Below are positions 1,912 to 42,248 of a stretch of 64,000 bases of DNA, piece after piece; position 1 is the first letter of the stretch; the number at the start of each line of letters is the position of its first letter. Below the pieces are notes generated by a model that was given only the letters and a program-made list of their open reading frames with translations, had not been told where the DNA came from and ran no database searches. Source of the DNA: Bdellovibrionales bacterium (GTDB lineage Bacteria; Bdellovibrionota; UBA1018; CAIMNF01); the NCBI GenBank assembly GCA_040380025.1, contig JBEIJY010000002.1, positions 73,660 to 137,659 of the forward strand. The letters are read 5' to 3'. A program made the position numbers and the translations under genes.

Positions 1912-3039
1912 TCAGGGCTTCTTTTTCACAGCCGGCGGAGTCAACGAAGAATTCGGGAGGGGCTTCGCGGGAGTGGCCACCGGTTTCGGTTTTGCGGGCG
2001 CTTTTACCGGTGCGGGAGCTTTTGCCGGTGGCGGAGCCTTTACCGGAGCAGGTGACTTCACGGGAGTCGGTTCCGGCTTCGGTTCGATCAAGCGAGGGCT
2101 CGGAGGAAGCGGAACGGGTGCAATTTCTTCTTGTCCGAAGAGCGTGTACCGGATTCCCGCGATGATCCTGAGGTCTTGACCCAACGGTCCGCCGATCCTC
2201 GAAATATCCAATCCTGCAGTGGCGGAAAGGCCGTTTGAGGAGCCGTGCCGGAGCCCGAGATAAAAATCATTCGGGGCCGTGTTGTTGCTCAGGGGAACCA
2301 TGTTGATCGAGTTGATCTCGGCAGACATCCCCCATGAGTCATTGAAAGGAAGATATCCTCCAATTCCCGCGATGAACCGGCGCCGAAAGTCGATCGGCGC
2401 GTAGTTCGCACTGAAATCATAAATCGAGTTCGGGGCCGAGACGTACCCGAGATTGATGACCATCGTCCATGCCTCGAAAGTCCGCTCGAGCGTTCCGCGA
2501 AGGCCAAGATACGGAGTTCCGTCTGACACGAAGGCGCCGCTTCCCCCGGTCGCAAAGCGGACCTCAGGAATCAGGGCCACCGCGGTGTGAGAGCCATCGT
2601 TCGTGAGGCGGATTTTTCCCATGAGCTTGATGTCGCCGATGCTGGTTTCGTTCGAGTAGTCGCCGAGAGGTCCTTCGAGTGGGTTTCCCGAGAAGCTCAC
2701 ATAGTGGATGGGGACGCCGAGATAAAGCGCGAAGTTGTTCGCAAGCTTCGCACCTGCGAAGAGGTCTAGGGTCTGCAACGAATCAAGAATGGGAGCGGTG
2801 GCGGTCTGGCCCTCGGTGCCCGCCACGAGCGGGTTCGAGACAAAATTGTAGGTTGCGCCGAAATAGTACAAAGCCTTCTTCGGCCACTCCGAGCGGAACC
2901 CATCCTCGAGCAGTACGAACCGGTCCGAGGTCGATGGGTTGAATGTCTGAACGTTGATGCTCTTGATTCCCGCAAAAGCGATTCCCGGAAAAAGCAGGGA
3001 AACCAAAGCGATCCGGCGAAGAAACAAGGGAAGTCTCAT
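1912..3039 (-). CDS. outer-membrane beta-barrel-like protein with C-terminal Pro/Ala/Lys-rich (PAPVKAP-type) tail
   Basis: Signal peptide MRLPLFLRRIALVSLLFPGIAFAG. The body has an alternating beta-strand pattern. The C-terminal 60 aa are low-complexity PKPEPTPVKSPAPVKAPPPAKAPAPVKAPAKPKP. Confidence 0.6.
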   Translation of the reverse strand: MRLPLFLRRIALVSLLFPGIAFAGIKSINVQTFNPSTSDRFVLLEDGFRSEWPKKALYYFGATYNFVSNPLVAGTEGQTATAPILDSLQTLDLFAGAKLANNFALYLGVPIHYVSFSGNPLEGPLGDYSNETSIGDIKLMGKIRLTNDGSHTAVALIPEVRFATGGSGAFVSDGTPYLGLRGTLERTFEAWTMVINLGYVSAPNSIYDFSANYAPIDFRRRFIAGIGGYLPFNDSWGMSAEINSINMVPLSNNTAPNDFYLGLRHGSSNGLSATAGLDISRIGGPLGQDLRIIAGIRYTLFGQEEIAPVPLPPSPRLIEPKPEPTPVKSPAPVKAPPPAKAPAPVKAPAKPKPVATPAKPLPNSSLTPPAVKKKP

Positions 3040-7246: not shown

Positions 7247-7336
7247 GGAGAGATGGCAGAGTGGTCGATTGCACCGGTTTTGAAAACCGGCAGACTCGTA
7301 AGGGTCTCGGGGGTTCAAATCCCTCTCTCTCCGCCA
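7247..7336 (+). tRNA. tRNA-Ser (anticodon TGA), type II with long variable arm, CCA encoded
   Basis: GGAGAGA...TCTCTCC 7-bp acceptor stem with discriminator G and CCA. Anticodon stem CCGGT/ACCGG with loop TTTGAAA. Long variable arm and a GGTTCAAATCC T-loop. Close to E. coli serT architecture. Confidence 0.9.
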
Positions 7337-10413: not shown

Positions 10414-10821
10414 ATGTCGAAAAGCCAATGCGGGTCGTTTTGTGGTACACTCCCGCCCATGATGACCGGTATTCGCAAAGTTCTCGGATTCCTGATCCTT
10501 GCCCTCGATCGCATTTTCGTCCCCGGGGTCGAGGTAAGCCGCACTCCGCCGGAGCAGGAAGCGCTCGACCGGAGGCTTTCGGATTGGACCCTGTACCACC
10601 TTGAGGCTTGCCCTTTTTGCGTCAAAGTGCGTCGTCAGATGAAGCGCCGGGCGCTCACGATTCCCCTGAAAGAGATCAATGCCGATTCCCGGTTCCATGC
10701 CGAGCTCATGGCGGGCGGAAAGCTCGATCAGGTCCCGTGTTTGCGCTATCGCGACTCCGCAGGCGCCGAAAAATGGATGTACGAATCGAGCGACATCAAC
10801 GCGTTTCTTGCAGGCCTTTGA
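10414..10821 (+). CDS. glutaredoxin-family (thioredoxin-fold, CPFC) protein
   Basis: LYHLEACPFCVKVRR...GGKLDQVPCL. Divergent from ahpC. The start is uncertain (ATG 10414 or 10459). Confidence 0.6.
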   Translation: MSKSQCGSFCGTLPPMMTGIRKVLGFLILALDRIFVPGVEVSRTPPEQEALDRRLSDWTLYHLEACPFCVKVRRQMKRRALTIPLKEINADSRFHAELMAGGKLDQVPCLRYRDSAGAEKWMYESSDINAFLAGL

Positions 10822-10833
10822 GAGCACACCCTG

Positions 10834-12801
10834 ATGCTTCAAATTCAAGCCGTATCGAAGAGTTTCGGATCGAAAGTCCTGTTTGAGGGCGTACGCGCGA
10901 ATCTCGATGCTCGCTCCCGGATCGCCCTTGTGGGGCCGAACGGGGCTGGCAAATCGACTCTGATCAAGATGATCCTGGGGGGCGAGCACCCCGATCAGGG
11001 GGCGATTGTTCTTCATCCCCACGTTCGGGTCGGGCATCTGGCTCAGGAGCTTCCGAAGTTCGAGGATCGCACCATTCTGGACGAGGTGATGAGCCTCGGG
11101 GGGCGCCGCGGAGAAATCCTTGCACGAAAAGCCTGGCTCGAGCACGAGATGCAATCTCGCGAAGCGGGTCCGGCGCAGGATTCGGTGCTCTCGGCCTATG
11201 CAAAGGTTCTCGAGGAACTCGACTCGTTCGACGAGTTCCGTCTTCCCTCGCGGGCCGAGCGGATTCTCGAGGGGGTCGGCTTCCGGAGCCGGGATTTCGG
11301 GCGGAAGCTCTCGGAATTCAGCGGGGGCTGGCTCATGCGCGTGGCGCTGGCGCGCGTGCTTCTTTTGAATCCCGATATGCTCATCCTTGACGAGCCGACC
11401 AATCATCTGGACCTCGAGTCCCTGCTGTGGCTCGAGGAATTCTTGAAGGGCTATCCCGGCGCGATTCTGATGGTGAGCCATGATCGCGTGTTTTTGAACA
11501 AGCTCGTGAACGGAGTCTGGGAGATCGATCAGCGTCGCATCGAGACTTATTCGGGCGACCTCGATGCGTTCGTCGTTCAAAAAGAGGAACGCCTGAAGGT
11601 GCTCGAGGCGCGGGCGCAAGGGCAAGAGGCGAAGGCCGCCGAACTTCGCGCGTTCATCGAGCGGTTCGGTGCGAAGGCAAGCAAGGCCAGACAGGCGCAA
11701 AGCCGCATGAAGCAACTCGAAAAACTCGAGTCCCTCGAAAAAATCGAACTCCCGCAGGCAACGTCGGGAATCGGGTTTCGGTTCCCGCCCTGTCCGAAGA
11801 GCGGCTCGGTGGTGGCAACCATCAAGGGACTTCAGGTCAGAGTCGGGGCGGGCACCCAGGACGAGAAGACGCTCTTCTCGGGCTTGGACTGGATCGTCAA
11901 GCGCGGCACGCGCACCGCGATCGTCGGCGTGAATGGTGCCGGTAAAACCACTCTTCTGCGGGCTCTTGCCCGCAGTCTCGGGAACGGGGCCGAGTTCACC
12001 GCGGGCGAGTTCCGCCTGGGGCATGAGGTTCGCATCGGCTACTATTCCCAGCTTCAGGCCGAGACGCTCGATCTCGAAAGCACGATTCTCGAAGAGCTCG
12101 AGTCGACGGCACCCACGCTCGAAATCGCCCGCATTCGGGGCGTGGCGGGGGCGTTTCTTTTTCGGGGCGATGATGTCGAGAAAAAGATCAAGGTCCTCTC
12201 GGGCGGCGAGAAGGCGCGAGTGGCGCTTGCGAAACTCCTGCTGACCCCGAACAACTTTTTGCTCCTCGATGAGCCGACCAACCACCTTGACGCGGATTCG
12301 CGGGAGGTTCTGCTGAGTGCGCTCCAGGAGTACGACGGGACATTGTGCCTGGTTTCGCATGATCGTGATTTTGTGGCGCCCCTTGCCGATCAGCTCCTCG
12401 AGATCGAAAATCACAAGGTGATCCCGCTTGTGATTCCCTACGAGGAGTATCTCGAAAAGAAGACCCGCGAGACCCGCGAAAAAATCAAACAATCCTCGCG
12501 GAGCGGGACGCTTGCGGCCGCGACCCGGACTCTTGGTGCGACTAGCGATGCTCCGGCGGAATCGAAGGCGCCGAAGATCTCGAACAACCAGCGAAAGGCA
12601 TGGGAGCGGGAGTTCCAGCTCATTGAGGCCTCGATCGCCGATCTCGAAGAACGAATCCGCGAGCTGAACGACCGGATCGCCTCGGGCGATTTCGAAAAGG
12701 ACGCGGGGAAAATCCGGGCATGGATCGAGGAGCAGTCGGCTCTTCAGCTCGAATTGGACGCAAAAATGACACGATGGGAAGAGCTCGGAGGCTTATTATG
12801 A
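10834..12801 (+). CDS. ABC-F family ATPase (Uup/EttA-like, two NBDs plus C-terminal coiled coil)
   Basis: Two Walker A motifs (GPNGAGKST, GVNGAGKTT), two LSGG signatures, and a Lys/Glu-rich linker. Confidence 0.85.
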   Translation: MLQIQAVSKSFGSKVLFEGVRANLDARSRIALVGPNGAGKSTLIKMILGGEHPDQGAIVLHPHVRVGHLAQELPKFEDRTILDEVMSLGGRRGEILARKAWLEHEMQSREAGPAQDSVLSAYAKVLEELDSFDEFRLPSRAERILEGVGFRSRDFGRKLSEFSGGWLMRVALARVLLLNPDMLILDEPTNHLDLESLLWLEEFLKGYPGAILMVSHDRVFLNKLVNGVWEIDQRRIETYSGDLDAFVVQKEERLKVLEARAQGQEAKAAELRAFIERFGAKASKARQAQSRMKQLEKLESLEKIELPQATSGIGFRFPPCPKSGSVVATIKGLQVRVGAGTQDEKTLFSGLDWIVKRGTRTAIVGVNGAGKTTLLRALARSLGNGAEFTAGEFRLGHEVRIGYYSQLQAETLDLESTILEELESTAPTLEIARIRGVAGAFLFRGDDVEKKIKVLSGGEKARVALAKLLLTPNNFLLLDEPTNHLDADSREVLLSALQEYDGTLCLVSHDRDFVAPLADQLLEIENHKVIPLVIPYEEYLEKKTRETREKIKQSSRSGTLAAATRTLGATSDAPAESKAPKISNNQRKAWEREFQLIEASIADLEERIRELNDRIASGDFEKDAGKIRAWIEEQSALQLELDAKMTRWEELGGLL

Positions 12802-14225
12802 ATTTTGACGAACTTGCGATTTCAGACAGCATGAAGGCACGCCTGAAAGAAATCGGCTTCACCGCGATGACTCCGATTCAGGAGGCGACGATTCCCGTGA
12901 TTCTCGCGGGTCGCGATGTGATCGGCCAATCGAAGACGGGAAGCGGGAAGACCGCAGCCTTTGGGATACCGATTCTCGAAAAAATCGTCGTGCGCCAAGA
13001 AGGTCACCCTGAGCTTCAGGCCTTGATTCTGTGCCCGACCCGCGAGCTCTCGGCCCAGGTGGCTCGCGAGCTCCGGCGGCTCGGCACCAAAAAAATCGGT
13101 CTTCGGGTGATTGAGCTTGGGGGCGGAGTGCCGGGAGGCCCGCAGGCTCGCCAGCTCGAGAACGGAGTCCAGGTCGCGGTGGGCACCCCGGGGCGGGTGC
13201 TCGATCATCTCGAGCGAGGGCGGCTGGATCTGGCGAGTCTTCGGATGCTCGTGCTCGATGAGGCGGACCGGATGCTTGAGATGGGGTTTCAGGAAGAGAT
13301 GGACGGGATTTTTTCGAGGCTTCCCGAATCGCGACAAACGCTGTTGTTTTCGGCGACTTTTCCGCGTGGAATCCTCGAGATGAGCGCGCGGTGCCAGAAC
13401 GATGCAATTCCGCTCAAGCCCGAGGTGCCGTCGACGGACGAAGCGGAATCCTCCACGCAAGCGCTGATCCGGCAGGAGTTTCGGGTATTGGAGGGGGGAG
13501 AGGGGCAGGGGACCGATCGAACGGATGCGCTCTTGTCGCTTCTTTGGGAGACCGACCCCGAATCTGCGATCGTATTTTGCAACTTCAAGGCGGTCAGTTT
13601 TGAGCTGGTGCGCGATCTGAAAATGCTCGGCATCAGCGCCGATTGTTTGAACGGGGATCTCGAGCAGAGGGAGCGGGACCTCGTGATGGCGCGATTCCGG
13701 AATCGAAGCCTTCGCATTCTGGTGGCCACCGATGTTGCGGCACGGGGAATCGATGTGGCGGGGCTCGATTTGGTGGTGAACTATGAGCTTCCCCAGAAAA
13801 CCGAAAATTACGTTCATCGCATCGGCCGCACCGGACGGGCCGGGAAGACCGGCCTTGCCGTCTCGCTCATTCTTCCGCGCGAGAAGGATCGCGCCCGCAT
13901 GCTGGTCGGCCCGGCGTTTGGCGACGAAATCTTTGCGCCCGCCCGGACCGGCACTCCCGAAGGAGGGGCAAAACCCGCCCTTCAGGCCGGAATGGAGACA
14001 CTGATCATTCTGGAAGGCCGGAAGAACAAGATGCGTCCCGGTGACATTTTAGGAGCCCTGACGGGCGAGGCCGGAGGCCTCTCGGGCGAGCAGGTGGGAA
14101 AGATCGAGATCCATGACTTTCATGCCTTCGTCGCGATCGAGAAGAAGTCCGCCGCCCGCGCGCTTGCGCGTTTGCAAGAGGGGCGAATCAAGGGTCGAAA
14201 GGTGCGGGTCGAGCGGCCGAGGTGA
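12798..14225 (+). CDS. DEAD-box ATP-dependent RNA helicase with DbpA-type C-terminal RNA-binding domain
   Basis: Q-motif region, GSGKT, DEAD (VLDEADRML), SAT and HRIGRTGR motifs. The C-terminus has IEGRKNKMRPGDILGAL. ATG 12798 (MNFDELAI) is preferred over the track start at 12720, which overlaps the ABC-F gene. Confidence 0.85.
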   Translation: MNFDELAISDSMKARLKEIGFTAMTPIQEATIPVILAGRDVIGQSKTGSGKTAAFGIPILEKIVVRQEGHPELQALILCPTRELSAQVARELRRLGTKKIGLRVIELGGGVPGGPQARQLENGVQVAVGTPGRVLDHLERGRLDLASLRMLVLDEADRMLEMGFQEEMDGIFSRLPESRQTLLFSATFPRGILEMSARCQNDAIPLKPEVPSTDEAESSTQALIRQEFRVLEGGEGQGTDRTDALLSLLWETDPESAIVFCNFKAVSFELVRDLKMLGISADCLNGDLEQRERDLVMARFRNRSLRILVATDVAARGIDVAGLDLVVNYELPQKTENYVHRIGRTGRAGKTGLAVSLILPREKDRARMLVGPAFGDEIFAPARTGTPEGGAKPALQAGMETLIILEGRKNKMRPGDILGALTGEAGGLSGEQVGKIEIHDFHAFVAIEKKSAARALARLQEGRIKGRKVRVERPR

Positions 14226-14377
14226 ATCGTTCGAACATTCTGGTGCACAGCCGGGCCCGAAGAGCGTCAAGAAAATATCTTTTCTTTTTTCTTTTTTCCT
14301 TGACCTGACGTCTGTAAGCTTATGAAGTAATACCATTCAACGCAGTAAAACTATTGTTTGTCAGGAAAGGGATTTTC

Positions 14378-15157
14378 ATGTCTCGGATTAATAAAATCGT
14401 CCTGTCTTTGTTTGCGTTTTCGACCTTGTTTTCGAGCCCCGCTTTCGCAGAATCATCAAAAATGCTCAATCAGAACGACTTCGTGGGAATCTCGTTTTGG
14501 ATGATCTCGATGGCTCTCGTGGCGGCAACCGCCTTCTTCTTTCTCGAAACCCAGCGGGTTGCGGGAAAGTGGAAGACCTCTCTCACCGTTTCTGGTCTGG
14601 TGACCCTGGTCGCTGCGACTCACTACTTCTACATGCGTGAAGTATGGGTTGAGACGGCAAGCACCCCGACCGTATACCGGTACATTGACTGGCTCATCAC
14701 GGTTCCCCTTCTGATCACCGAGTTCTATCTGATCCTTCGTGCGATCGGAAAGGCCTCTGCCGGAATCTTCTGGCGTCTGATCATCGGAACCACCGCGATG
14801 CTCGCCCTCGGATACATGGGCGAAGCCGGTTACATGGGCGTGTGGCCCGCATTCATCCTGAGCTGTCTTGCGTGGTTCTTCGTGATCTACGAAATCTACG
14901 CCGGAGAAGCAGGAAGAATCGGAACCACCCAGGCTCCTCCCGCAGTTCAATCAGCGTACCGCACCATGCGGACCATCGTGGTCTTCGGCTGGGCGGTTTA
15001 TCCGATCGGATACTTCGTCGGATACCTCACCGGTGCAAACCCTGCCGACAGCATGGGAACTCTGAACATCGTTTACAACTTTGCTGACGTTGTGAACAAA
15101 ATCGGCTTCGGCGTGATCATTTGGAACGTAGCCGTCACTTCGAGCGAATCGAACTGA
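14378..15157 (+). CDS. proteorhodopsin, green-tuned proton pump (DTE motif, Leu105, Schiff-base Lys)
   Basis: Signal peptide, seven TM helices, RYIDWLITVPLLITEFY (D97, T101, L105, E108 by PR numbering), His75 (ATHYFY) and NFADVVNKIGFG retinal-binding Lys. RBS AGGAAAGGG lies upstream of ATG 14378. Confidence 0.9.
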   Translation: MSRINKIVLSLFAFSTLFSSPAFAESSKMLNQNDFVGISFWMISMALVAATAFFFLETQRVAGKWKTSLTVSGLVTLVAATHYFYMREVWVETASTPTVYRYIDWLITVPLLITEFYLILRAIGKASAGIFWRLIIGTTAMLALGYMGEAGYMGVWPAFILSCLAWFFVIYEIYAGEAGRIGTTQAPPAVQSAYRTMRTIVVFGWAVYPIGYFVGYLTGANPADSMGTLNIVYNFADVVNKIGFGVIIWNVAVTSSESN

Positions 15158-15178
15158 TTCGAACAAAAATAAGGAAAA

Positions 15179-15209
15179 GCCCCGCGACCCTGTCGTGGGG
15201 CTTTTTTTT
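15179..15209 (+). terminator. rho-independent terminator after the opsin gene
   Basis: GCCCCGCGAC-CCT-GTCGTGGGGC hairpin (one G:U pair) followed by T8. Confidence 0.75.
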
Positions 15210-15215
15210 GACCTC

Positions 15216-17207
15216 ATGAAACACTTTGATGTCGTCATTGCGGGCGGCGGTCTTTCCGGAATGATCTGCGCCGACACCCTCGCGAATTCTCCGAACACCG
15301 AACTCCGCATCGCCATTGTGGATCCCGATCCCGCGAGCCTGAAATCGAGGACTTTCGCGAGCTGGACAAAAAAATCCGAGCCTCCTCATCGGTATTCCGG
15401 CCTGGTTTCGAAGCGATGGGATCGGTTCCGGGTCACCGACCCCCGCGGGAATCCGATCGAAAGATCATTCGAAGACTATTGCTACGAGTACGTATCGGGA
15501 GAGTCGCTTTTTGAGCATTGGAATCAAAAAATCAATGCTGATCCCCGCTTTCATCGCATCGATCAATCCGTCCGGACCATCACCGAGGAGCGAAATCCCG
15601 ACACTGGACAGATTCGTGCGGTGGTGGAGCTCAAGGACGGACGCATCCTTCATGCTGATCGGGTGTTGAGCTCTCCCGCGCGCCATCCGGGAGCGGTTCA
15701 ACAAAGCTTTTTCGGGCTCGAGATCGAAACGACCGAGGAGTTCTTCGATCCGGATGTGGTGGATCTCATGGATTTTCGCTTCGAGCAAAAAGGCGAGGTC
15801 CGGTTTGTGTATCGCTTGCCCCTGAGCAAGACCCGCGCACTGGTCGAGTTCACGGTCTTTTCGGCAAGCGATGTTTCCAGAACAGACTGCGAGGCGGGAC
15901 TGCAAGAGTATCTTTCTCGATTGCTGGGGCTCCCTTCGTATTCCGTGCTCCGGACCGAATCCGGGATCATTCCGATGGGCGTGGACCCGGAGCCTTTTTT
16001 CCCCCCTTCGTTTCGAAGCCAGGTGATGGAATCGATCGGAGGAGCGGGAGGAAGAATCAAGGCCAGCACGGGATACTCCTTTCGGCGGAATCTGGAGCAC
16101 CCGGAAGCGGGGACGAGCGCGGGATCTGCGCGCTTCCGGTTCCGGATGTATGATGTGCTACTGCTCGGGATGATTCGACAAAACGGCGGCGTGGTCGCCG
16201 GCGTCTTTGCCCGATTGTTCGCACGAAACCGACCGGGAGCGGTGTTTTCGTTTCTGGACGAAAAATCGCGACCCTTGGACGAGGCCAGGATTTTCTGGTC
16301 CCTGCCTTGGACGCCTTTTTTGCGACAGTTGTTGCTGGAGTATCCTTTTCTTTTTGCCGCAATGGCAACTCTTTTGCTTCAGCATGCGATCGGAGGATTC
16401 GCCGGCTGGATCGTGCCCCTTTCGGGTCTGCTCATTACGGGCGTTCCCCATGGGAGTGTCGATCATTTGCTGAATCCAGCCCAAAAAAACAGACTTTCCT
16501 TCACGCTTCGCTATCTCATAGGAATGGCGCTTTATCTTCTCGCCTGGTGGTTTGCGCCTCTTCTGACCTTCTTGTTCTTTCTTTGGCAGTCGGCCGATCA
16601 CTTCGGCGAGGCATATTGGATTCGCGCGATCCGCGCGTCCAAGAATGATCCCCTGGTTCGCGGACTGGTCTGGCTCTGGGGCCTGTTCGCGGCCGGATTC
16701 AGTGTTTTGTTTCATTGGGAAGAGGCGATGCCGATCGTGATCGGCATCGTGGGCGATCAGGAGTGGATCCGAACACTCCCGGACTCGCGGGCTGGGTTTC
16801 TCTCGCTCGTTCTTTTTGGAATGGCCTTCATTGCGGCCCATTTGCTCGATCGCTATGAGCGCAGGTCCAGGGGGCGGCCCCCGAGCGGTGCTCCGGCCAC
16901 GCTTCTTCTCGGGGCTGTGCTCATGATGCTTCCTCTTTTACCGGGCTTTCTTTGTTTCTTTGCGTTCTGGCATGGCTGGGATTCGATCCGGGCCCAGCGG
17001 GAGCGCATGGGGTGGAGCGTGGGCGATTACGTTCGGAAGGCGTTGCCACTCTCGGTGGTTTCATGGGCCGGAATCTTTGGCTTGATTTGGTGGTTCGACG
17101 GGCTGATTTGGAAGGTCTTTTTTATCGCGATCGGCGCTCTCACCGCGGCCCACGTGCCCGCAATGAAGCGATTTTTACTTTCACGACCAACAGAAGAGCG
17201 GGGATGA
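15216..17207 (+). CDS. crtY-blh: lycopene beta-cyclase (CrtY/CrtL-type, FAD) fused in frame to Brp/Blh beta-carotene 15,15'-dioxygenase
   Basis: N-terminal VVIAGGGLSGM dinucleotide motif, ESGIIPMG and GGAGGRIKASTGYSF cyclase motifs. The C-terminal 290 aa form a multi-TM domain with conserved His motifs (PHGSVDHL, SADHFGE, HWEE, FWHGWDS) typical of Blh. Confidence 0.85.
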   Translation: MKHFDVVIAGGGLSGMICADTLANSPNTELRIAIVDPDPASLKSRTFASWTKKSEPPHRYSGLVSKRWDRFRVTDPRGNPIERSFEDYCYEYVSGESLFEHWNQKINADPRFHRIDQSVRTITEERNPDTGQIRAVVELKDGRILHADRVLSSPARHPGAVQQSFFGLEIETTEEFFDPDVVDLMDFRFEQKGEVRFVYRLPLSKTRALVEFTVFSASDVSRTDCEAGLQEYLSRLLGLPSYSVLRTESGIIPMGVDPEPFFPPSFRSQVMESIGGAGGRIKASTGYSFRRNLEHPEAGTSAGSARFRFRMYDVLLLGMIRQNGGVVAGVFARLFARNRPGAVFSFLDEKSRPLDEARIFWSLPWTPFLRQLLLEYPFLFAAMATLLLQHAIGGFAGWIVPLSGLLITGVPHGSVDHLLNPAQKNRLSFTLRYLIGMALYLLAWWFAPLLTFLFFLWQSADHFGEAYWIRAIRASKNDPLVRGLVWLWGLFAAGFSVLFHWEEAMPIVIGIVGDQEWIRTLPDSRAGFLSLVLFGMAFIAAHLLDRYERRSRGRPPSGAPATLLLGAVLMMLPLLPGFLCFFAFWHGWDSIRAQRERMGWSVGDYVRKALPLSVVSWAGIFGLIWWFDGLIWKVFFIAIGALTAAHVPAMKRFLLSRPTEERG

Positions 17208-18030
17208 AGAGCAGGATTTTTCGAGTGGTCGGGACCACGGTCCGGTTCCGGAATGCTGTTTTCGGGTCACTCGCCGCGGTCTTCAGCAATTCGTGACCGA
17301 TTTGCTGATAGAGTTTTCCGGCGAAGGCGATCGCCACGGCCGTCCGAAGGGGCAAAAATGCAATCCCCCGAAAGCCCTCGTCATACCAACGGTCAGCAAG
17401 ACGCAACAACGACCGCACCGCCGGGAGCGCTCGCTCAGGTTCGTGTGCCAGCTCGCGTGCCAAGTCGTGAGCCCCTAGCCCCGGCATGAGATCAGCCGGA
17501 ATGTACACTCGGCCGATCCGGGCATCGGCTTGGATGTCGCGCGCAATGTTCGTGAGCTGCATTGCCTTTCCGAGCGCGGCGGCCGGAGCCGGCGCCCGGA
17601 TCGGATCGGCACCGATCACGGGGCACATCATGAGTCCCACGACTCCGGCCACACGAAAGCAGTACTGTTCGAGTTCCGAAACGGTCGCATAGCGCGTGTC
17701 TTCGAGATCCATCCGGAACCCCGCGAGGAATTCCGCCCGGTGCGCGGGATCGACCCAGGCGGGAGGGCTGAAAGGAGAGTTTGCGTCGGTAGCGCACTCG
17801 ATTTCTTGAAGCCCGCGCAGCGCAGCGGAGCGGTCAGGGGCCTCGTCGATTCGATCATCACAGTTTCGGCACCACTGATACAGCCGAAGTGCATCGTGGC
17901 GCGTGGAGCGCGGCAAAAAAAATGAAGCGAGGGCAAAGCTTTTCGATCCTTGCCGGATCACCTCCTCGGGCGAAATCGCGGGGTGAGGTCTAGGATGCGG
18001 TCGAGGGTGCTCGTCTGGCGCGGCCGTCAT
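17140..18030 (-). CDS. crtB: phytoene synthase
   Basis: Squalene/phytoene synthase family with DxxxD-type substrate-binding motifs (YCFRVAGVVG, NIARDI). The start abuts the crtI stop. Confidence 0.85.
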   Translation of the reverse strand: MTAAPDEHPRPHPRPHPAISPEEVIRQGSKSFALASFFLPRSTRHDALRLYQWCRNCDDRIDEAPDRSAALRGLQEIECATDANSPFSPPAWVDPAHRAEFLAGFRMDLEDTRYATVSELEQYCFRVAGVVGLMMCPVIGADPIRAPAPAAALGKAMQLTNIARDIQADARIGRVYIPADLMPGLGAHDLARELAHEPERALPAVRSLLRLADRWYDEGFRGIAFLPLRTAVAIAFAGKLYQQIGHELLKTAASDPKTAFRNRTVVPTTRKILLFIPALLLVVKVKIASLRARGPR

Positions 18031-19554
18031 TCAGGCCTGCGCCTCGAATCGGGCCGATCGAATGTCGTCCAAGAGCAGATTCGCGGTCGCTTTTGCGGAA
18101 TTCACGACTCCCGGAACCCCTGCCCCGGGATGCGTGCCGGCGCCGACAAAATAGAGACCCTTCAGGTCGGGGTCGCGATTTCGGGTGCGGAACGCAGCAC
18201 TTTGCCAAAGGACGGGTTCGGCCGAGAAGGCCGCACCCAGATGTGAGTTCAGCTCGTCCCGGAAATCCTCAGGCGTGAAGATGCGCTGGGTGACGATGTG
18301 CTTTCGCAAATCGGGAGCGTAGCGGGTCTCGATGTACTCGAGGATTTTCTCGGCATAGGCGGGGCCCTCTTTCTTCCAGTCGATCTTGAGGTTTCCGAGA
18401 TGGGGAACGGGCGAAAGAACATAAAACGCCTCACATCCCTCGGGGGCCATCGACGGGTCCGAGCGGGTGGGGGCATGAAGATAGAGCGAGAAATCATCGG
18501 GGATTTCGTCATTCTTGCTGAAGATTTTTTTCAGGAGCTCGCGGTAGGATTTTCCGAACAGAATATTGTGATGGGCGAGTTTCGGATATTGCTTGCTTGT
18601 CCCGAAGTAAATCAAGAAGAGGGACATGCTCTGGGATTGCCGGAGCGCTTTCTGGCGCGAGGGGCGGACTTGTTCGGAGTTTCGAAGAAGGTGCGAGTAA
18701 CTGTGAACCACATCGGCGTTCGTGACGACGATGTCGCAGGGCCAGGTCCCCTGATGCGTGCGAACCGCCGAAACGCTCGAGCCATGGGTCAAAATCTCAT
18801 CGACGGGAGTCGAGAGCTCGATTCTTCCCCCAAGTTCCTGAAACAACCGCACAAGAGCGTTCACGAGTGCGCCGGTTCCTCCGCGCGGAAAGAACACGCC
18901 CCAGTTTCGTTCGAGGTAATGAATCAGGGTGTAAATCGAGGAGGTCTTGAAGGGGTCGCCGCCCACTAGCAACGAATGAAAACTGAATGCCTGGCGAAGC
19001 TCACGGTCTTCGATGTATTGCGAGACCGTCTTGAAGACCGAGCGGTGAGCCTTCAGATTCACAAGCTGGGGTGCAACCCGCACCATGCTCCAGAGATTCA
19101 AAAACGGAACATGGGCGAGCTTGGTGTAGCCCTCATCGAAGACATTCTTCGAGTAGTTCAGGAACCGCTCATAGCCTTCGACGTCGCGCGGGGACTTCGA
19201 CTGGATCTGCTCGAAGGTCGTCTTCGGATCGTTCGAGTAGTCGAAGACATAGCCGTTCTCCCAAAAGAGCCGATAAAACGGGCTCACGGGCATGAGCTCG
19301 ACGTAGTCTTCCATCTTCCGGCCCGCCTCTTCGAACAACTCCTTCAGGCACTCAGGCGCGGTGATCACAGTGGGACCAGCATCGAAAACAAAGCCCTTGT
19401 CCCGGTACACATAGGCCCTGCCGCCAGGCTGGTCTCGCTTTTCGAAGAGCACCACTTCGTGTCCGGCCGTTTGCAGGCGCACGGCGGCGGCCAGTCCCGC
19501 AAAGCCACTGCCGATGACGGCGATTCTTTTTTTGTTCCTGATTTTTTCAGCCAT
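18031..19554 (-). CDS. crtI: phytoene desaturase
   Basis: IAVIGSGFAGLAAA FAD motif. Full-length CrtI-like amine-oxidase fold. Confidence 0.9.
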   Translation of the reverse strand: MAEKIRNKKRIAVIGSGFAGLAAAVRLQTAGHEVVLFEKRDQPGGRAYVYRDKGFVFDAGPTVITAPECLKELFEEAGRKMEDYVELMPVSPFYRLFWENGYVFDYSNDPKTTFEQIQSKSPRDVEGYERFLNYSKNVFDEGYTKLAHVPFLNLWSMVRVAPQLVNLKAHRSVFKTVSQYIEDRELRQAFSFHSLLVGGDPFKTSSIYTLIHYLERNWGVFFPRGGTGALVNALVRLFQELGGRIELSTPVDEILTHGSSVSAVRTHQGTWPCDIVVTNADVVHSYSHLLRNSEQVRPSRQKALRQSQSMSLFLIYFGTSKQYPKLAHHNILFGKSYRELLKKIFSKNDEIPDDFSLYLHAPTRSDPSMAPEGCEAFYVLSPVPHLGNLKIDWKKEGPAYAEKILEYIETRYAPDLRKHIVTQRIFTPEDFRDELNSHLGAAFSAEPVLWQSAAFRTRNRDPDLKGLYFVGAGTHPGAGVPGVVNSAKATANLLLDDIRSARFEAQA

Positions 19555-20644
19555 GCGAATTCATCACCTTTCTTGCCATTTCTTCGATCGGGTTCAGAGC
19601 CGGGTTCCCGGCGAATCGATCTTTGAGTCCTCTCAGACACGAATCCATCGCCTCGCAGGCTTGCGCAAGCGCCACCGCGATCACCGGATGGGTCGTCCGC
19701 GGATCGTCTTCGCCTTTTTGGATGGTTCGGGACATCAGGGCCTGGAATTTTGTGAACTCATGGGGTTCGAGCGTTGTCGCCGCAACCGCCCACACCCAGG
19801 ACGGACGAATGAAGGGCCCTCTCGGGGTGTCCGATTTGCCCGATTCGCGAAACTCGGCCAGGTCATTGAACATTTGCAACAAGACCCCGAACGACTGACC
19901 GAAATCGGCAATCGTGCGACGAAGGTCCGAATGGGCAGAGGCGGCGACGGCTCCGAATTCGGCGCACATCCTCATGAGGGCGCCGGTTTTCAGGCCCAGC
20001 GTTGCCATCGAGATTGGAGTGATTTTCGCTTGGGGCAGAAAGGTCATGTCATGAGCGAGATCGAGCGACTGACCATAGTGAGCTTGAATCATGGCGTGAT
20101 GATGAACCCGATAGAGCTCGAGCTCGATTTCAGCCGGGATTTTTTGAGACCGGATCAGGTCGGTCGCGCGGTAGTAGAGCCAGTTGCCGGCATTGATGGC
20201 AGAGGGCATGCCGATCAGGGCGTGCAGGGCAGGGCCGCCTCTTCGAGTCATGCTTGAGTCCTGAATGTCATCGATGATCAGGGATCCGGCATGGATCGTC
20301 TCGACCATGGCACCGAGAGAAGAGAGCAAGTCCTCGTGCTCCTTGTCTCGGACCGCTGAACCCGAGGCGAGATCAAACCCGATCGAGACCAACTGAGCCC
20401 GGACCTGTTTGCTCGGCCGGTCCAAGTATTCGTTCAGGGGGTCGAGCATGGGTGCGAGCAAAGGGGGAAGAGCTTCTTTTGGCGCGACTCCCAGCGGGAG
20501 CCATTCCCGCAAAAAAGCCAAGTCGTCCGGGCCCGGGAGGATCATCTGCGACAAAGTACGCGGTTGGTCCGACCTCGCGGGCGGGGATGTTCTGAATGGT
20601 TCCTGGATTTCTCTTCGATTCGTCAGTTCACGAAACTCGTTCAC
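19547..20644 (-). CDS. crtE: polyprenyl (geranylgeranyl) diphosphate synthase family
   Basis: First aspartate-rich motif LIIDDIQD. The second motif is degenerate (FNDLAEF). It overlaps the crtI start by 8 nt. The true start may be the internal ATG (MILPGPDD) near 20545. Confidence 0.75.
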   Translation of the reverse strand: MNEFRELTNRREIQEPFRTSPPARSDQPRTLSQMILPGPDDLAFLREWLPLGVAPKEALPPLLAPMLDPLNEYLDRPSKQVRAQLVSIGFDLASGSAVRDKEHEDLLSSLGAMVETIHAGSLIIDDIQDSSMTRRGGPALHALIGMPSAINAGNWLYYRATDLIRSQKIPAEIELELYRVHHHAMIQAHYGQSLDLAHDMTFLPQAKITPISMATLGLKTGALMRMCAEFGAVAASAHSDLRRTIADFGQSFGVLLQMFNDLAEFRESGKSDTPRGPFIRPSWVWAVAATTLEPHEFTKFQALMSRTIQKGEDDPRTTHPVIAVALAQACEAMDSCLRGLKDRFAGNPALNPIEEMARKVMNSHG

Positions 20645-20818
20645 GCGCCCCGCCCCGCTGTTTTGCCAAAAATCCCTCGTGTCTTCATGGATAACAGCCG
20701 GAGTGGTTGAATTCTAGAAAATACAGGCACCTGACCCTAACGAGGGTTACGGGAGTATTCCTTGCTGTTTTGGTCAACTTAAGGTATCATTCGCGCCCGA
20801 AACCCAGGGATTTGTCTT

Positions 20819-21649
20819 ATGAAGTGTTTCACGGCCGTGGTTGCATTTGTCCTTTCTGTTCCCCTCTTCGCCATCGCAGATGAGCGATGTTCCGATCTTC
20901 TGACCAAGAAAACCCACCAGGAGGCGATTGCCGAGGGGATTCTTGCGAGCTATGCCCCTTATCAGTACCGCCCGTTCCGACTCGAACCGCTTAGCCAGAA
21001 TCAGAATGCCATCGTATTTTTGGGATCGGAGATTGATCTTCCAAAACGGAAGTTCATTTTGAAGGTCATGCCGCTCGGCGAGGCATTGAGCGACTTTTAT
21101 GCTCTTCGCTTGATTCGAGGCATCCAGAAAGAGATTCGAATCCCGATTTCCGTGGTCGATTCGGTGGTTCTCACGCCTCGACTCGGAACTCTCGCGTCAG
21201 AGACCTTGGTGCTCCAGAAAAACTCCCTCGCCCGGGGAAGAACTTTGTTTGAGATTCTTGCCGACGAACAGGTCGCAACCGATCGAAAGAGTTACCTTCG
21301 GAATTACTATATGGCCTGGATCCATCAAATGGCGGGAGCTTTGAAGAAGAAGCGGTTTTTGGTCGAAACGAAGCGTCTGGAGTCCAACTTTTATCGAAAC
21401 CAACACCGCTTCATCGAGACCCATCCGAATGCGATCGACGATCAGCCGATTGCGCTCAGTGCGAGCCGTTTGTGGGATGAAGAGATGAGGGGCAAGGAGA
21501 TGGAGCCTTTGTTCCAGTATCTCGACCGCGCATCCCGTGGTGTGCTCGAGAACCTGAGCAGTAGCGGGAACGGGATATCCATCATCCTCAAGACCGACAA
21601 CATCATGGTCGATGATTCCGACCACATGGTGTTGTTTGATCCATTTTAA
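20819..21649 (+). CDS. secreted hypothetical protein with protein-kinase-like motifs
   Basis: Signal peptide. KFILKV (VAIK-like), ILKTDNIMV (catalytic-loop-like) and VLFDPF (DFG-like) appear in the expected order. Confidence 0.5.
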   Translation: MKCFTAVVAFVLSVPLFAIADERCSDLLTKKTHQEAIAEGILASYAPYQYRPFRLEPLSQNQNAIVFLGSEIDLPKRKFILKVMPLGEALSDFYALRLIRGIQKEIRIPISVVDSVVLTPRLGTLASETLVLQKNSLARGRTLFEILADEQVATDRKSYLRNYYMAWIHQMAGALKKKRFLVETKRLESNFYRNQHRFIETHPNAIDDQPIALSASRLWDEEMRGKEMEPLFQYLDRASRGVLENLSSSGNGISIILKTDNIMVDDSDHMVLFDPF

Positions 21650-23100
21650 TTTTTTGGTTTCGGATTCTTTTTTTCGATCAGGGGGGCAGTCAACTTTACG
21701 CGAAGTCCGCGATCGGGATTCCCGATGGGTAGCACCAGATACATGCTGGTGCCCGATCGAGGAAATTCCAATCCGGCCGCAATTTCGCCAGAAATCCCCT
21801 GTTTTTTTGCCCACTCCCGGAGAATCGATACATTGACAAAGCCCCGCACGGGGGTCTTTTCGGAGCTTCCGGCGAAATTTGTGCCGAAACTCGCCCCGAA
21901 ACTCGCTTCACTCGAAAGCTCTTGCCCCGCTTCGGCGTTGTTTCGGATTCGAATCGGGGTCACCGACGCGTTCGCGACCAACCCGCCCTTGTGAAGTTGA
22001 TACGCTCCCGTTGCCTCATTGGTTTGCCCGAGCCGTGTGATCAATCCATAGGTGTGCCGGGCTCCTCCGGTCGAATTGGCTGATTCCGAGACTTGGACGA
22101 TCAGCTGGCCGTAAGGATCGGAGCCGCGGGTCTCGTACCCCAAAAACAGGTTCTGGTTTTTCTTCTTCCATGCGACCCCGGTCAACGCCTGCTCCCGGAA
22201 TGGCCTGGCGATCAATACATATTGAAGTTTTCCACCGACCCGTCGGAGCGGATTTTGACCGGAAATCCGGAAATCCAGGTAGCTGCCTCCCGGATCGGTC
22301 GCATCCACGCGGGAGCGGAGCGAGAGATCAGAATCGCCAATCGATGCCCCCGAGGGATTCCGCCAGTGTTGTTTGTAGTCAAAACCGACCGGAATCGTGA
22401 CCGGTCCCAAGGAGTAAAATCGCGGTTTGAATTTGGATTTCTTTCCCTTTTCCATCGGAATGGCCGAAAATCGGCCTGCTTCCACCGCAGATGGAACCAA
22501 GGCTGTCCATCGGCTCCCGGTGACCCAAAGATCGGGATTCGCAGGCGAAGGTTCAAGGGCAATTACCGCAAGAGGACTCGACTGCGAAGACAGTTCGAGA
22601 ATCTCCGGCAAATCGGAGTCCCCCGGGGCCTGCGACGGCCGCCAAGAACAGGCATCGACGTTTTCTCCGAAAGCGGCCTTCGCCCACTCGCCATCGAGAG
22701 AGGGCGGAAAAGCCCCAATCGCGGCCTGAAGGGGTTTCAGATTCTCTGCCACCGGAGAAACTGCTCCGGGCGGAGGTTCTTCAAAAACCGGGATTAGCTC
22801 GTGGTCGATTGCTCTGTCCGTGAAGTTGATGAACGAGGGGGTGAATCCGAGCCCCATTTGCTTTTGCATCTCGAGCGGATCCCCGAATGCGCTGGCAAGT
22901 TCGGGCAGACGTAACCATCCCTCTGGCGTGGCCAAATCCGGAAACAGTCCCGGCTGCATCACATAGTGCCCGAGAAAAAAAGCATTCCTCTCCCAATCCG
23001 AATCTTGTGCCTGCACGCGCGCCCCGATGCACCAAAAAATTGGCATCAAGATCAAGAACCGAACAGGAATCCGTATCGCCCGAAAAAACAGCGCACTCAT
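21646..23100 (-). CDS. hypothetical secreted/outer-membrane protein (484 aa)
   Basis: Signal-anchor-like N-terminus. The C-terminal half has alternating hydrophobic/polar residues and ends in an aromatic-rich beta-strand-like segment. Confidence 0.55.
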   Translation of the reverse strand: MSALFFRAIRIPVRFLILMPIFWCIGARVQAQDSDWERNAFFLGHYVMQPGLFPDLATPEGWLRLPELASAFGDPLEMQKQMGLGFTPSFINFTDRAIDHELIPVFEEPPPGAVSPVAENLKPLQAAIGAFPPSLDGEWAKAAFGENVDACSWRPSQAPGDSDLPEILELSSQSSPLAVIALEPSPANPDLWVTGSRWTALVPSAVEAGRFSAIPMEKGKKSKFKPRFYSLGPVTIPVGFDYKQHWRNPSGASIGDSDLSLRSRVDATDPGGSYLDFRISGQNPLRRVGGKLQYVLIARPFREQALTGVAWKKKNQNLFLGYETRGSDPYGQLIVQVSESANSTGGARHTYGLITRLGQTNEATGAYQLHKGGLVANASVTPIRIRNNAEAGQELSSEASFGASFGTNFAGSSEKTPVRGFVNVSILREWAKKQGISGEIAAGLEFPRSGTSMYLVLPIGNPDRGLRVKLTAPLIEKKNPKPKN

Positions 23101-38394: not shown

Positions 38395-40767
38395 TTACCA
38401 ATAGGGCACCGTCCGGTAGAACACCGAGGTGTCGAATCTTTGGGATGCCCCGAAGCCCCATTCCGAGGCCCGCTGGCTGAATCCCATGGTCATGAACAGC
38501 GTCTCATCGGCGAGGAGCTTCGCGCTCAGTTTCCGTTCGAGCGGGTCAGGGGAGTTCGGATCGAGAGTGATCGAATTCAAACCCTCTTTGAACTTCAGAT
38601 GCCGGTTGTAGACGATCACCTCGATCGCATCTTTTTTGTGTCGTCTCGACATCGGCTGAATCCGAAAGTACAAAAACTCCGGCGTTTTGCTCAAATTGAA
38701 GTGAATCACGGTTCTTCCAAGCGCATCACGCGAAGAATAGAACGACCGCACGAGGGCCTCGGGGTCTTGCGCGGTCCGTTCGGTCTCGGTTCCCATTCCC
38801 ATCGATTGCGACGAGATCCGGAGCGTGTTTTCCATCGCGGTCGGCGTGTGCCCGCGCACCTGGATGTTCCCGAAGGCCGGATTCTGCGCCACCAAGAACC
38901 GTTCATAGGTGCCGTTCGGGAGTCCCTCCATCAGCAGAATCGGATACAACTCCGAACGCCCCTGATTGGCAAAAAGACGCGTGAGTGCCGCATGTTCGGC
39001 CTGTGCATCCCCGCGAAGAAAAGCTTCGCGCGCCTCCTCGAACCAGCGTTGCTTGAGTCTCAGGCCGAGTCCCTTTGCACGGCGGTCGATTTCTTCCCAC
39101 GGGGTCTCGAGGAAGCGCCGGAGGCCCGAGAGCTTGAAGGTCATTCCGAAGTAAAACGAGCTTCTTCCGTAAAACAGTCGTCTTCCCAGTTTTTTTCCCG
39201 GAGCGGGCGGCGCCCGGCGGGGAAATCGCGGAAAAATCCCTTTCAGTCCCAAATCGGTTTCGACCCGTCCCACGTACCGGTTCAGCGAGGCGGCCATGGT
39301 GTAAGAGTCATCGATGGAGTTCTCGGACATCAGCACGAACGAGTCCTCGAGCTTCTCGCGGAACGCCTGATCATCGATCAGAATCGAGGTGCGATGGGTG
39401 ACGCGTTCCCCGCTTCCGACAAAATCGTATTCCCGCGAGCGGGACTTCACGGACTGAAAAAATCGCTTCTCTCCGTCCGGGAGTTCGATCTCGGTCGTGA
39501 TTTTTTGCGAGCCCCGCGCGACACTGAACCGGATCACCGGGCTTGCACGCCCGCTGAATTCGGCGTTGTGGAGGTGCCGGTCGGTTTTTCGGCGGTACAA
39601 CCGCTCGACCGGAGGTCGCCCTTCTTCGGGTATCATCGCAGAGAGCTCGCTTGACCGGATGAACGAGCCCAGCACCGCACGATGATACGCATCCCTTCCC
39701 TCGGGCGACTCGAGATCGTAGCGGTATCCGACATCGAGGCCGATCTCGCGCGCATTGGTCGCCGTGAACTGAAACGGCGTGATGGTGGGGCTCAGGCGTC
39801 CCACGGTGGTTTCGATGCTCGAACCTTTGAACAGAACAAATCCTTGAAATACCCCCGGAAAGCCAAGTCTTGTTCCCGCCGTGACCTTGAGCTGATCGCC
39901 CTTCAGGCGGCTGATCCGGACTTTCGCGTAGCGATCGTCTTCTTTCATGATCGCGATCTGGTAACTGCCCGTAAAATGGAACTCCACGCCGACTCCCGCG
40001 TAGCCCTCGATCAGGGGTACGGGCGACACATTCCAGCCGAAATCCCCCCCGAAGCCCGCGGTGCCCGAGACGGTGTAGCTGATGATCTCGTTCTTCTTCA
40101 TGCGCTTCTTCACGCAGTTCGCATGAAAGGGGATTTTGAAGGGGAGCTTTACGAGATTCAACACATCCCGGAGCTTTACCCGCATCGCCGCATCGAGCGG
40201 ACTGGAGTTCAGGTACGGGTTCAGGTCTTCGATGTCGGCCTCGTCGCCCGGGCCCGCGTTCTCGAAATCGAGGGCCTCCTTGGTGCGGGCTTTTTCGGGG
40301 CTCATCTGCCGGATGTTCCGGATCTCGAATGAGCCATCGACCCCGAGGCGCATTCCGCCCACGGGGAACTGCAGAACCTGATCGGGAATCCGCTCGGGGG
40401 GGCCCACGGTCAGGTCCGCGCCGACGATGCGCGAAGCGAGGCGGATCGAGAACGAGTCGATCACCGTCCAGGTGTTCAGGGTGTCGTAGTTGTTGAAGAT
40501 GTTGCGTCCGATGCGGACCGCGCCCGAGCCGATTCCGGGAATGTCGCTGTCATACAGGGGAATCGAGGTGTTTCCGTCGAAGAGGGCGTTCACGATCCGG
40601 TATTCGAGGGCTTCGCCCCGGGTCATCGAGGATTGGTAGAACTCCTCGGGCCAGGGTCTTGGCTGGAAGTCGAAGCCCGGCGGAGGAGGGCGCGGCACTT
40701 CGATTTGTGCGAGCGCGATCCCCGGCATGGCCAGCAATGCCGCAAAGAAAATGCGAAGCAAATTCAC
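38395..40767 (-). CDS. large secreted hypothetical protein (790 aa)
   Basis: Signal peptide MNLLRIFFAALLAMPGIALA. No recognisable family. The antisense ORFs across it are Arg-rich artefacts. Confidence 0.65.
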   Translation of the reverse strand: MNLLRIFFAALLAMPGIALAQIEVPRPPPPGFDFQPRPWPEEFYQSSMTRGEALEYRIVNALFDGNTSIPLYDSDIPGIGSGAVRIGRNIFNNYDTLNTWTVIDSFSIRLASRIVGADLTVGPPERIPDQVLQFPVGGMRLGVDGSFEIRNIRQMSPEKARTKEALDFENAGPGDEADIEDLNPYLNSSPLDAAMRVKLRDVLNLVKLPFKIPFHANCVKKRMKKNEIISYTVSGTAGFGGDFGWNVSPVPLIEGYAGVGVEFHFTGSYQIAIMKEDDRYAKVRISRLKGDQLKVTAGTRLGFPGVFQGFVLFKGSSIETTVGRLSPTITPFQFTATNAREIGLDVGYRYDLESPEGRDAYHRAVLGSFIRSSELSAMIPEEGRPPVERLYRRKTDRHLHNAEFSGRASPVIRFSVARGSQKITTEIELPDGEKRFFQSVKSRSREYDFVGSGERVTHRTSILIDDQAFREKLEDSFVLMSENSIDDSYTMAASLNRYVGRVETDLGLKGIFPRFPRRAPPAPGKKLGRRLFYGRSSFYFGMTFKLSGLRRFLETPWEEIDRRAKGLGLRLKQRWFEEAREAFLRGDAQAEHAALTRLFANQGRSELYPILLMEGLPNGTYERFLVAQNPAFGNIQVRGHTPTAMENTLRISSQSMGMGTETERTAQDPEALVRSFYSSRDALGRTVIHFNLSKTPEFLYFRIQPMSRRHKKDAIEVIVYNRHLKFKEGLNSITLDPNSPDPLERKLSAKLLADETLFMTMGFSQRASEWGFGASQRFDTSVFYRTVPYW

Positions 40768-40836
40768 CCTCCCGAATGAACGATCCCGACAGCACCGTAA
40801 ACCGGATTGATGTACCGAGTCGAGGGATTTTCAAAA

Positions 40837-41027: not shown

Positions 41028-41046
41028 TTTGTGGTATACGGCCTCG

Positions 41047-42003: not shown

Positions 42004-42248
42004 GTTTAAAGGCCGATAAATTCGATCTGATAATCAAAGTTGATTCACGAATAAAAAAACTAAAGGTTTCTGAACTCATGCCGAAAGGAAGGTGTCTGAG
42101 CTGGAGGTGCTTTGGTGGGTACTCAAAGGCTCGGGCACTTGACTGGGGGCCGTTCCACTTTTTGAAACGAAGGAACCAAGACTGAGGTGGTTCCGACGGG
42201 TACAGCGAGGTGGTGACGGCTCCTTTTTTTTTCGCTAGTCTCAGATCC

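Follow-up and report, generated by a model that had tools for sequence, protein, structure and literature searches.

Marine proteorhodopsin (PR) gene clusters consist of a PR gene together with crtE, crtI, crtB, crtY and blh, with or without idi, and Martinez and co-workers reportedly found, in a 2007 PNAS paper, that a six-gene PR set is sufficient for photophosphorylation in E. coli. Among natural fusions of carotenoid enzymes, fungal CrtYB and thraustochytrid CrtIBY are known. Further fused enzymes are the Thecamonas CrtI-CrtB-CrtYc/d-Blh protein (PMC10016063) and a verrucomicrobial CrtIB fusion (PMC10284914). Opsins in metagenome-assembled genomes (MAGs) of Bdellovibrionota have been noted in passing in earlier literature, and the solved xanthorhodopsin (XR) Kin4B8 (PDB 7ytb) originates from an uncultured Bdellovibrionota bacterium (bioRxiv 10.1101/2022.08.24.505090). 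Here we analyzed a stretch of 64,000 nucleotides (nt) of contig JBEIJY010000002.1, referred to as the window, in which a PR gene is clustered with predicted genes for retinal synthesis and in which crtY and blh form one single open reading frame (ORF). PR photosystems are textbook biology and the cluster itself changes little; the system is of an ordinary type, its enzyme architecture is modestly novel, and its distinctive element is the bacterial FAD-type CrtY-Blh fusion.

An ORF map of the region from 12 to 23 kb revealed five ORFs, all at the coordinates given by an earlier annotation of the window (the original prediction): the opsin gene and an ORF of 670 amino acids (aa) on the plus strand, and three tightly packed ORFs on the minus strand. 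The cluster is bracketed precisely by positions 14230-20644, with dbpA ending at 14225 and the 5' end of the crtE ORF located at 20644. The opsin and the crtE, crtB, crtI, crtY and blh domains that make up a complete PR photosystem set are all present within 14378-20644. We estimate a probability of roughly 85% that the cluster represents a self-sufficient PR photosystem in a Bdellovibrionota/Oligoflexia-like bacterium with freshwater-lake MAGs as its nearest relatives. The features of the cluster are as follows.

14363..14372, plus strand: Shine-Dalgarno-like AGGAAAGGGA, 5 nt upstream of the opsin ATG, read from the sequence
14378..15157, plus strand: proteorhodopsin gene, 259 aa (PF01036, E 2e-44; green PR (GPR) 8cqc, E 6e-89; 57% identity)
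15170..15209, plus strand: intrinsic terminator, stem 15179-15188/15192-15201, then U8 at 15202-15209
15216..16397, plus strand: CrtY (FAD-type lycopene beta-cyclase) domain, motif VIAGGGLSG (PF05834, E 5e-47)
16398..17207, plus strand: Blh (beta-carotene 15,15'-dioxygenase) domain, all-helical membrane (PF15461, E 2e-30; TIGR03753 above cutoff)
17140..17207, no strand assigned: convergent overlap of crtY-blh (plus) and crtB (minus), from ORF coordinates
17140..18030, minus strand: crtB, phytoene synthase, 296 aa (PF00494, SQS_PSY, E 1e-51)
18031..19554, minus strand: crtI, phytoene desaturase, 507 aa (TIGR02734 crtI_fam, 666 bits, cutoff 238)
19547..20644, minus strand: crtE-like polyprenyl (geranylgeranyl diphosphate, GGPP) synthase, 365 aa from GTG 20644 (PF00348, E 2e-33)

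The two units are convergent and their 3' coding ends overlap by 68 nt (17140-17207). A convergent overlap of crtY-blh and crtB also occurs in two of the related loci (L004 and L082), where it spans 17-21 nt, and the five-gene layout is repeated on a 293-kb JGI contig. The original prediction had described two units arranged tail to tail, opsin-terminator-crtYblh on the plus strand and crtE-crtI-crtB on the minus strand, with all enzymes for the formation of retinal from isoprenoid precursors encoded within 6.4 kb; both statements were borne out by the ORF map, the hairpin fold and the Pfam and NCBIfam assignments, which cover each step from farnesyl diphosphate (FPP) and isopentenyl diphosphate (IPP) to retinal. 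The crtY and blh domains are both present; what the original prediction had written as crtY-blh is a single uninterrupted ORF and not a pair of genes. The absence of idi and of a sensory transducer was likewise confirmed among 36 window ORFs scanned against Pfam, which comprise every ORF of at least 200 aa minus the shorter of overlapping pairs and a few others. An isomerase of the NUDIX or FMN_dh type was found neither in the neighboring ORFs nor among those scanned, ORFs of less than 200 aa not being scanned.

Compared to the marine PR clusters, the locus has an opsin of the same family, which shares 57% identity and the functional residues with GPR, and likewise clusters the five enzymatic steps. 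It differs in that crtY and blh are fused, idi is lacking, a terminator is located between opsin and fusion, crtE-crtI-crtB is convergent and CrtE is of type III with an NDxxE motif; in addition, the host is Bdellovibrionota-like with freshwater-lake MAGs as closest relatives. With the XR clusters of Bdellovibrionota (the Kin4B8 lineage; loci L001-L003 and L006) it shares the phylum-level lineage, the fused crtY-blh (49-50% identical; 39% in L006) and crtE-crtI-crtB. In contrast, the opsin in these clusters is a fenestrated (Trp-Gly) XR that is 31-32% identical and encoded on the opposite strand, and L002 adds crtW-like, cruF-like and glycosyltransferase genes, whereas the window encodes an unfenestrated PR and none of the extra genes. 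As in the other natural carotenoid fusions, consecutive enzymes are joined, and Thecamonas also has its cyclase directly upstream of Blh. However, the cyclase of the window is a bacterial FAD-type CrtY (PF05834) and not CrtYc/d, and the fusion is limited to the last two steps and occurs in a bacterial host. The standalone Blh of the uncultured marine bacterium 66A03 (Q4PNI0) belongs to the same Brp/Blh family, and its four histidines His-21/78/188/256 are kept in the window; unlike this protein, the window Blh is fused to CrtY and carries Ser at the position equivalent to His-192. Full-text literature searches yielded no description of a bacterial CrtY-Blh fusion within the literature searched. 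The fusion adds a cyclase-dioxygenase to the short list of natural carotenoid-enzyme fusions, and neither half has a solved structure. In metabolic engineering, artificial fusions of this type are constructed to increase the yield of retinoids.

The fusion is encoded by one uninterrupted ORF on the plus strand (15195/15216-17207), in which a Lycopene_cycl domain (residues 12-311, E 5e-47) is followed by a BCD/Blh domain (residues 412-654, E 2e-30); the latter scored 122 bits against TIGR03753, which has a cutoff of 95. Translation is likely initiated at ATG 15216; the resulting protein of 663 aa is the same as database protein P0121, and its start fits the N-termini of homologues. The domains are joined head to tail without linker, and the length of 663 aa corresponds to approximately that of a standalone CrtY (~380 aa) plus a standalone Blh (~280-300 aa). 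We aligned the protein with 20 other full-length fused homologues that are 28-54% identical (21-sequence alignment). Most homologues keep the FAD dinucleotide motif, in which G17 is invariant and G19, L20 and G22 are almost invariant. Within the Blh domain, four histidines, His419, His469, His593 and His653 in the numbering of the 670-aa ORF, are shared even by standalone Blh proteins with an identity of only ~26%. No structure of a Blh protein exists, and a plane formed by His-21/78/188/256 has been proposed as the iron site (bioRxiv 10.64898/2026.08.06.743266); the four conserved histidines of the fusion correspond to this plane. At 16971-16985 (FWHGWDS), Ser occupies the fourth position after His593, the counterpart of His-192 of 66A03 Blh, whose role as iron ligand is disputed, and the consensus of the fused clade (FWHxWDS) does not have His at this position either. 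With four histidines kept and Ser at the His-192 equivalent, natural variation in the fused clade is informative about the Blh iron site.

An AlphaFold model based on the 21-sequence alignment had a mean predicted local distance difference test (pLDDT) score of 87.3 and a predicted template modeling (pTM) score of 0.85 and was confident across the junction, implying that the two domains are arranged in a defined way. When the model was compared to the PDB by Foldseek, only the flavoprotein half was matched; the N-terminal half matches the flavoprotein folds of geranylgeranyl reductase, UbiI and squalene epoxidase (E 4e-11). A search of PDB sequences with the fusion profile gave no match at E <= 0.01 for either half. 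Taken from its domains, CrtY-Blh is predicted to convert lycopene to beta-carotene and further to retinal.

Single ORFs with both domains occur in at least 25 loci (one genome per GTDB species plus one JGI contig), and both domains are present in 99 of the 258 database proteins retrieved; the fusion thus recurs in at least 99 proteins of freshwater Bdellovibrionota and Bacteroidota. When clusters at 50% identity were considered, about 60 of the 150 best representatives were fusions of full length (entries of at least 600 aa), and the database copies of the fusion are filed under single-domain names. The window protein falls into a Bdellovibrionota-type clade (39-55% identical), apart from a Bacteroidota-type clade (27-33%) whose members derive from MAGs labelled Crocinitomicaceae, Cryomorphaceae and Flavobacteriales and from single Sphingomonadales and Akkermansia MAGs. 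Unfused Blh proteins of Bdellovibrionota are 37-43% identical to the window protein and hence nearer than the Bacteroidota-type fusions. In an unbootstrapped neighbor-joining tree of Blh domains, the two types of fusion split, and fused and unfused Blh of Bdellovibrionota interleaved.

The opsin ORF reaches upstream to TTG 14354, and PF01036 spans opsin residues 44-262 (E 2e-44). The most probable start is ATG 14378, because the Shine-Dalgarno-like sequence is located 5 nt upstream, the exact product of 259 aa is on record on a 168-kb contig (NCBI/ENA) and the closest relatives also have a length of 259 aa. The motif AAAGGGA is kept at the same place upstream of the opsin gene of L082, the product of which is 86% identical. 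The protein begins with MSRINKIVLSLFAFSTLFSSPAFA and then ESSK, an N-terminus that resembles a Sec signal peptide. In a global alignment with GPR (57% identity), residues R94, D97, T101, L105 and E108 of GPR correspond to R101, D104, T108, L112 and E115, and H75, D227, N230 and K231 correspond to H82, D237, N240 and K241. The protein is thus a member of the seven-helix family with the Schiff-base Lys241 aligned to K231 of GPR, and the tuning site at GPR position 105 is occupied by Leu (Leu112), as in green-absorbing PRs, and not by Gln, as in blue-absorbing ones. The hallmarks of a green-absorbing outward proton pump that had been predicted for the opsin therefore hold at the level of the sequence (DTE motif, Leu105, alignment to GPR), and the Schiff-base Lys and the equivalents of D97 and E108 had been assigned correctly (K241, D104, E115). 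In XRs, a fenestration Gly in helix E (XR Gly156) permits binding of a carotenoid antenna, which is blocked by Phe (bioRxiv 10.1101/2022.08.24.505090). The equivalent position, which is Phe152 in GPR, is Phe159 in the window opsin (hand-checked register, starting from W138 of bacteriorhodopsin), and therefore no antenna is expected. We infer that the opsin is a green-absorbing outward proton pump of the PR clade.

Within the minus-strand unit, the assignment of CrtI is secure on the basis of its family score. The stop codon of crtE overlaps the start of crtI by 8 nt (ATGGCTGA), and the ATG of crtB immediately follows the stop codon of crtI (TGAATG), indicating that the three genes form a translationally coupled operon. 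The crtE-like gene more probably starts at ATG 20545, which would result in a protein of 332 aa. The first aspartate-rich motif of this protein is DDIQD, and the position of the second is occupied by NDLAE, where type III enzymes have DDYxN. The nearest solved relatives are the yeast and human GGPP synthases (E 3e-18 and 1e-14), and we classify the protein as a putative eukaryote-like (type III) enzyme whose second motif is NDxxE. NDxx(E/D) is kept in four homologues of the clade (L002 2960-4018, L003, L006 and L082 15205-16224), the five members being 37-52% identical, which indicates a lineage trait and not decay. The operon context suggests that the protein acts as GGPP synthase. The designation CrtE in the original prediction is in agreement with the family match and the operon context, but not with the NCBIfam equivalog scores, all of which are below cutoff, or with the second motif.

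The strong intrinsic terminator is located directly 3' of the opsin stop codon. It consists of a 10-bp GC-rich core stem followed by eight U and has a folding free energy of -27.7 kcal/mol (z -5.7), with 0 of 200 shuffled sequences being as stable. The U tract ends at 15209 and thus the terminator stops 7 nt before the crtY-blh start codon at 15216, which leaves no room for a promoter of crtY-blh at this place. A sigma-70 promoter scan of positions 14000-21000 gave a single match, which is intragenic and on the wrong strand and compares to 2.1 matches expected by chance. An alignment of the region upstream of the opsin gene with that of L082 displayed only the conserved Shine-Dalgarno sequence and a weak -35-like TTGAC/TGGAC. 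We consider that crtY-blh is probably made only by read-through of the opsin terminator. A hairpin with U tract but with a different stem sequence is present at the same place in L082 and L005. These hairpins of Bdellovibrionota-type loci are located at 10781-10859 (L082) and 145-249 (L005) and have a strong U tract. A hairpin after the opsin stop codon, preceding blh or crtY-blh, also recurs across phyla with unrelated stems (L083 8772-8836, L085 8778-8854 and L087 8778-8857), and in these loci from other phyla the U tract is weak or absent. The post-opsin hairpin may represent a general device that sets the ratio of opsin to enzyme.

Organisms were compared by MAG labels, using the crt genes and the flanking ABC-F gene. 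Among the matches listed, the closest fused proteins are 49-55% identical and stem from MAGs labelled Oligoflexales, Oligoflexia and Bdellovibrionales; the closest crtI genes (77-83% identical) are found in MAGs with these labels. The flanking ABC-F protein is 100% identical to one encoded on an NCBI/ENA contig of 168,238 bp, and its named relatives (53-57% identity) fall mostly into these groups as well. Judged by these genes, the organism is Bdellovibrionota/Oligoflexia-like, which agrees loosely with the possibly predatory organism suggested by the original prediction, and the isolate names of several of the relatives suggest freshwater lakes. The opsins encoded beside blh or the fusion in L001-L003, L006, L012 and L065 are 30-32% identical to the window PR, and that of L002 is an XR (3ddl, E 7e-87; Kin4B8, 2e-83) with the fenestration Gly. 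In L002 (6579-12836; Oligoflexales MAG ZE-Jul18-111), and also in L001, L003 and L006, crtE-crtI-crtB is followed, in this order, by a crtW-like desaturase/ketolase gene, a cruF-like gene, an ORF of unknown function, a GT2 glycosyltransferase gene, crtY-blh and a convergent gene for a fenestrated XR. The L002-type cluster looks like a complete antenna-carotenoid and XR cluster built around the same fusion.

We determined the identity of the window proteins to those of the XR-type clusters and to those of the PR-type locus L082. The values were 77-83% versus 79% for crtI, 56-60% versus 60% for crtB and 49-50% versus 52% for the fusion. These equal distances fit vertical descent of the crt genes and exchange of the opsin only. 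PRs on contigs labelled Acidobacteria and Acidimicrobiia share 74-79% identity with the window PR; on these contigs a standalone blh comes next after the opsin gene, and Blh, CrtY and CrtE are 26-32% identical to those of the window. In the simplest reading of these comparisons, the retinal pathway with its fused enzyme is native to the lineage and has been combined with different opsins obtained by lateral exchange; the type of opsin has probably been exchanged. With one retinal pathway serving two opsin families, Bdellovibrionota would offer a clear-cut case in which opsins are exchanged while the module for chromophore supply is conserved. Judging from matching sizes, at least six other contigs (29062, 17348, 3817, 20734, 373660 and 22414 bp) seem to pair a PR of the window's own or the neighboring 90%-identity cluster, at least ~86% identical to the window PR, with a fusion that is 48-54% identical; on these contigs the opsin would be far more conserved than the linked fused enzyme, for which either stronger constraint or a recent spread of the opsin may account.

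Taken together, the following mechanism is proposed. The translationally coupled crtE-crtI-crtB genes on the minus strand would direct the conversion of FPP and IPP to GGPP, phytoene and lycopene. The CrtY and Blh domains of the plus-strand membrane protein of 663 aa would then turn lycopene into beta-carotene and beta-carotene into two retinal molecules. Retinal would bind to Lys241 of the Sec-exported opsin, and the green-absorbing outward pump would add to the proton-motive force in the light. Read-through of the opsin terminator would give rise to abundant opsin and little enzyme from a single promoter. A more far-reaching version regards CrtY-Blh as a dedicated 'retinal synthase' that channels lycopene to retinal within one membrane polypeptide, with no free carotenoid pool, and whose synthesis depends entirely on read-through of the opsin terminator, chromophore formation being tied to opsin transcription; we hold this version tentatively and at somewhat less than even odds.

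Several alternatives were weighed against this photosystem. In classical PR clusters crtY and blh are two adjacent genes, and the fusion might accordingly be an artefact of assembly or a frameshift. A separate blh directly follows crtY in loci from Chitinophagales, Saprospiraceae and Sediminibacterium (L007, L009, L033, L037 and others), and a standalone blh is present in some MAGs of Bdellovibrionota (L012, L065). However, the ORF of the window is uninterrupted, and a contig of the Logan assembly (ERR9973196, 4375 bp) is 100% identical over window positions 13278-17652, including the fusion junction. The 20 fused homologues can be aligned over their full length without interruption at the junction, the single fused ORFs in at least 25 loci come from different MAG projects, and the structure model is confident across the junction; we give next to no credence to an artefact. 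It was also considered that the opsin might not be an energy-conserving proton pump but a sensory rhodopsin, another ion pump or an antenna-bearing XR. One member of the neighboring 90%-identity opsin cluster carries the source label 'sensory rhodopsin', and sister MAGs pair the same fusion gene with XRs. This possibility is rendered very improbable by the retention of the DTE motif, the H75 equivalent and the Schiff-base Lys and by the ranking against solved structures, in which green PR 8cqc (E 6e-89, 301 bits) is followed by blue PR (266 bits), with XR 3ddl at E 2e-20, sodium and chloride pumps at ~1e-10 and sensory rhodopsin II at 1e-9. Moreover, the scanned window ORFs include no HAMP/MCP transducer, Phe159 occupies the fenestration position, and no carotenoid ketolase or hydroxylase is encoded in the cluster.

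The original prediction had further referred to the cluster as an island, and the whole 6.4-kb region might have been acquired horizontally in recent times. The flanking genes do differ between loci that have the identical five-gene layout, with dbpA and an unknown ORF in the window and genes for DoxX and an HD protein in L082; the PR has its 74-79% identical counterparts on contigs labelled Acidobacteria and Acidimicrobiia, and the overall GC content of the PR gene is 2.5 standard deviations below that of the other window genes (z -2.5). The low GC content of the PR gene was rejected as a signal of transfer, since its GC content at third codon positions (GC3) is normal and an AT bias at the first two codon positions is typical of membrane proteins. 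For all five genes, GC3 is within ~1.2 standard deviations of the other window genes and thus typical of the window. The crt genes and the fusion are closest to loci of Oligoflexia and Bdellovibrionales, the same groups as the relatives of the flanking ABC-F protein, and the crt genes are equally distant from the PR-type and XR-type clusters of the group (crtI 77-83%, crtB 56-60%, fusion 49-52%). In addition, the cross-phylum PR donors have Blh and CrtY proteins with an identity of only ~26%, and no integrase, transposase or tRNA gene was found at the cluster borders. The notion of a mobile island hence finds no support, the crt genes appear lineage-native, and we regard recent acquisition of the whole cluster as unlikely.

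Some observations weigh against the proposed photosystem or parts of it. The CrtY domain scored below the equivalog or subfamily cutoffs and is a family-level match only. For crtB the best NCBIfam models are CrtB, all with scores below the equivalog cutoffs, and for the CrtE-like protein every NCBIfam score was below cutoff (best score 84 bits) and Asn replaces the first Asp of its second Asp-rich motif. The window contains neither the IPP-supplying pathway nor, among the ORFs scanned, idi. No promoter was identified for either transcription unit within the scanned region, and a promoter within the 3' end of the opsin gene is possible, so that read-through is only probable. Finally, the enzyme activities, proton pumping and absorption color are predicted from the sequence.

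Rfam and tRNA scans of the whole window detected no riboswitch or known RNA within the cluster; the sole RNA gene detected is a tRNA-Ser (anticodon TGA) at 7247-7336 on the plus strand. Five long ORFs had no match in Pfam or NCBIfam: 20819-21649 (plus), 21646-23100 (minus), 38395-40767 (minus), 1912-3039 (minus) and 40659-42185 (plus). The two ORFs directly beyond crtE have no counterpart adjoining the cluster in any related locus. The remaining window encodes ordinary Gram-negative housekeeping functions, comprising BamA, LpxD, an LpxB-LpxK fusion, a LolCE-like permease, peptidases, an acyl-CoA dehydrogenase and redox enzymes. The ORF at 51781-53961 on the plus strand (726 aa) contains LpxB (residues 34-385) and LpxK (residues 435-723) Pfam domains and is an apparent fusion of lipid A enzymes.

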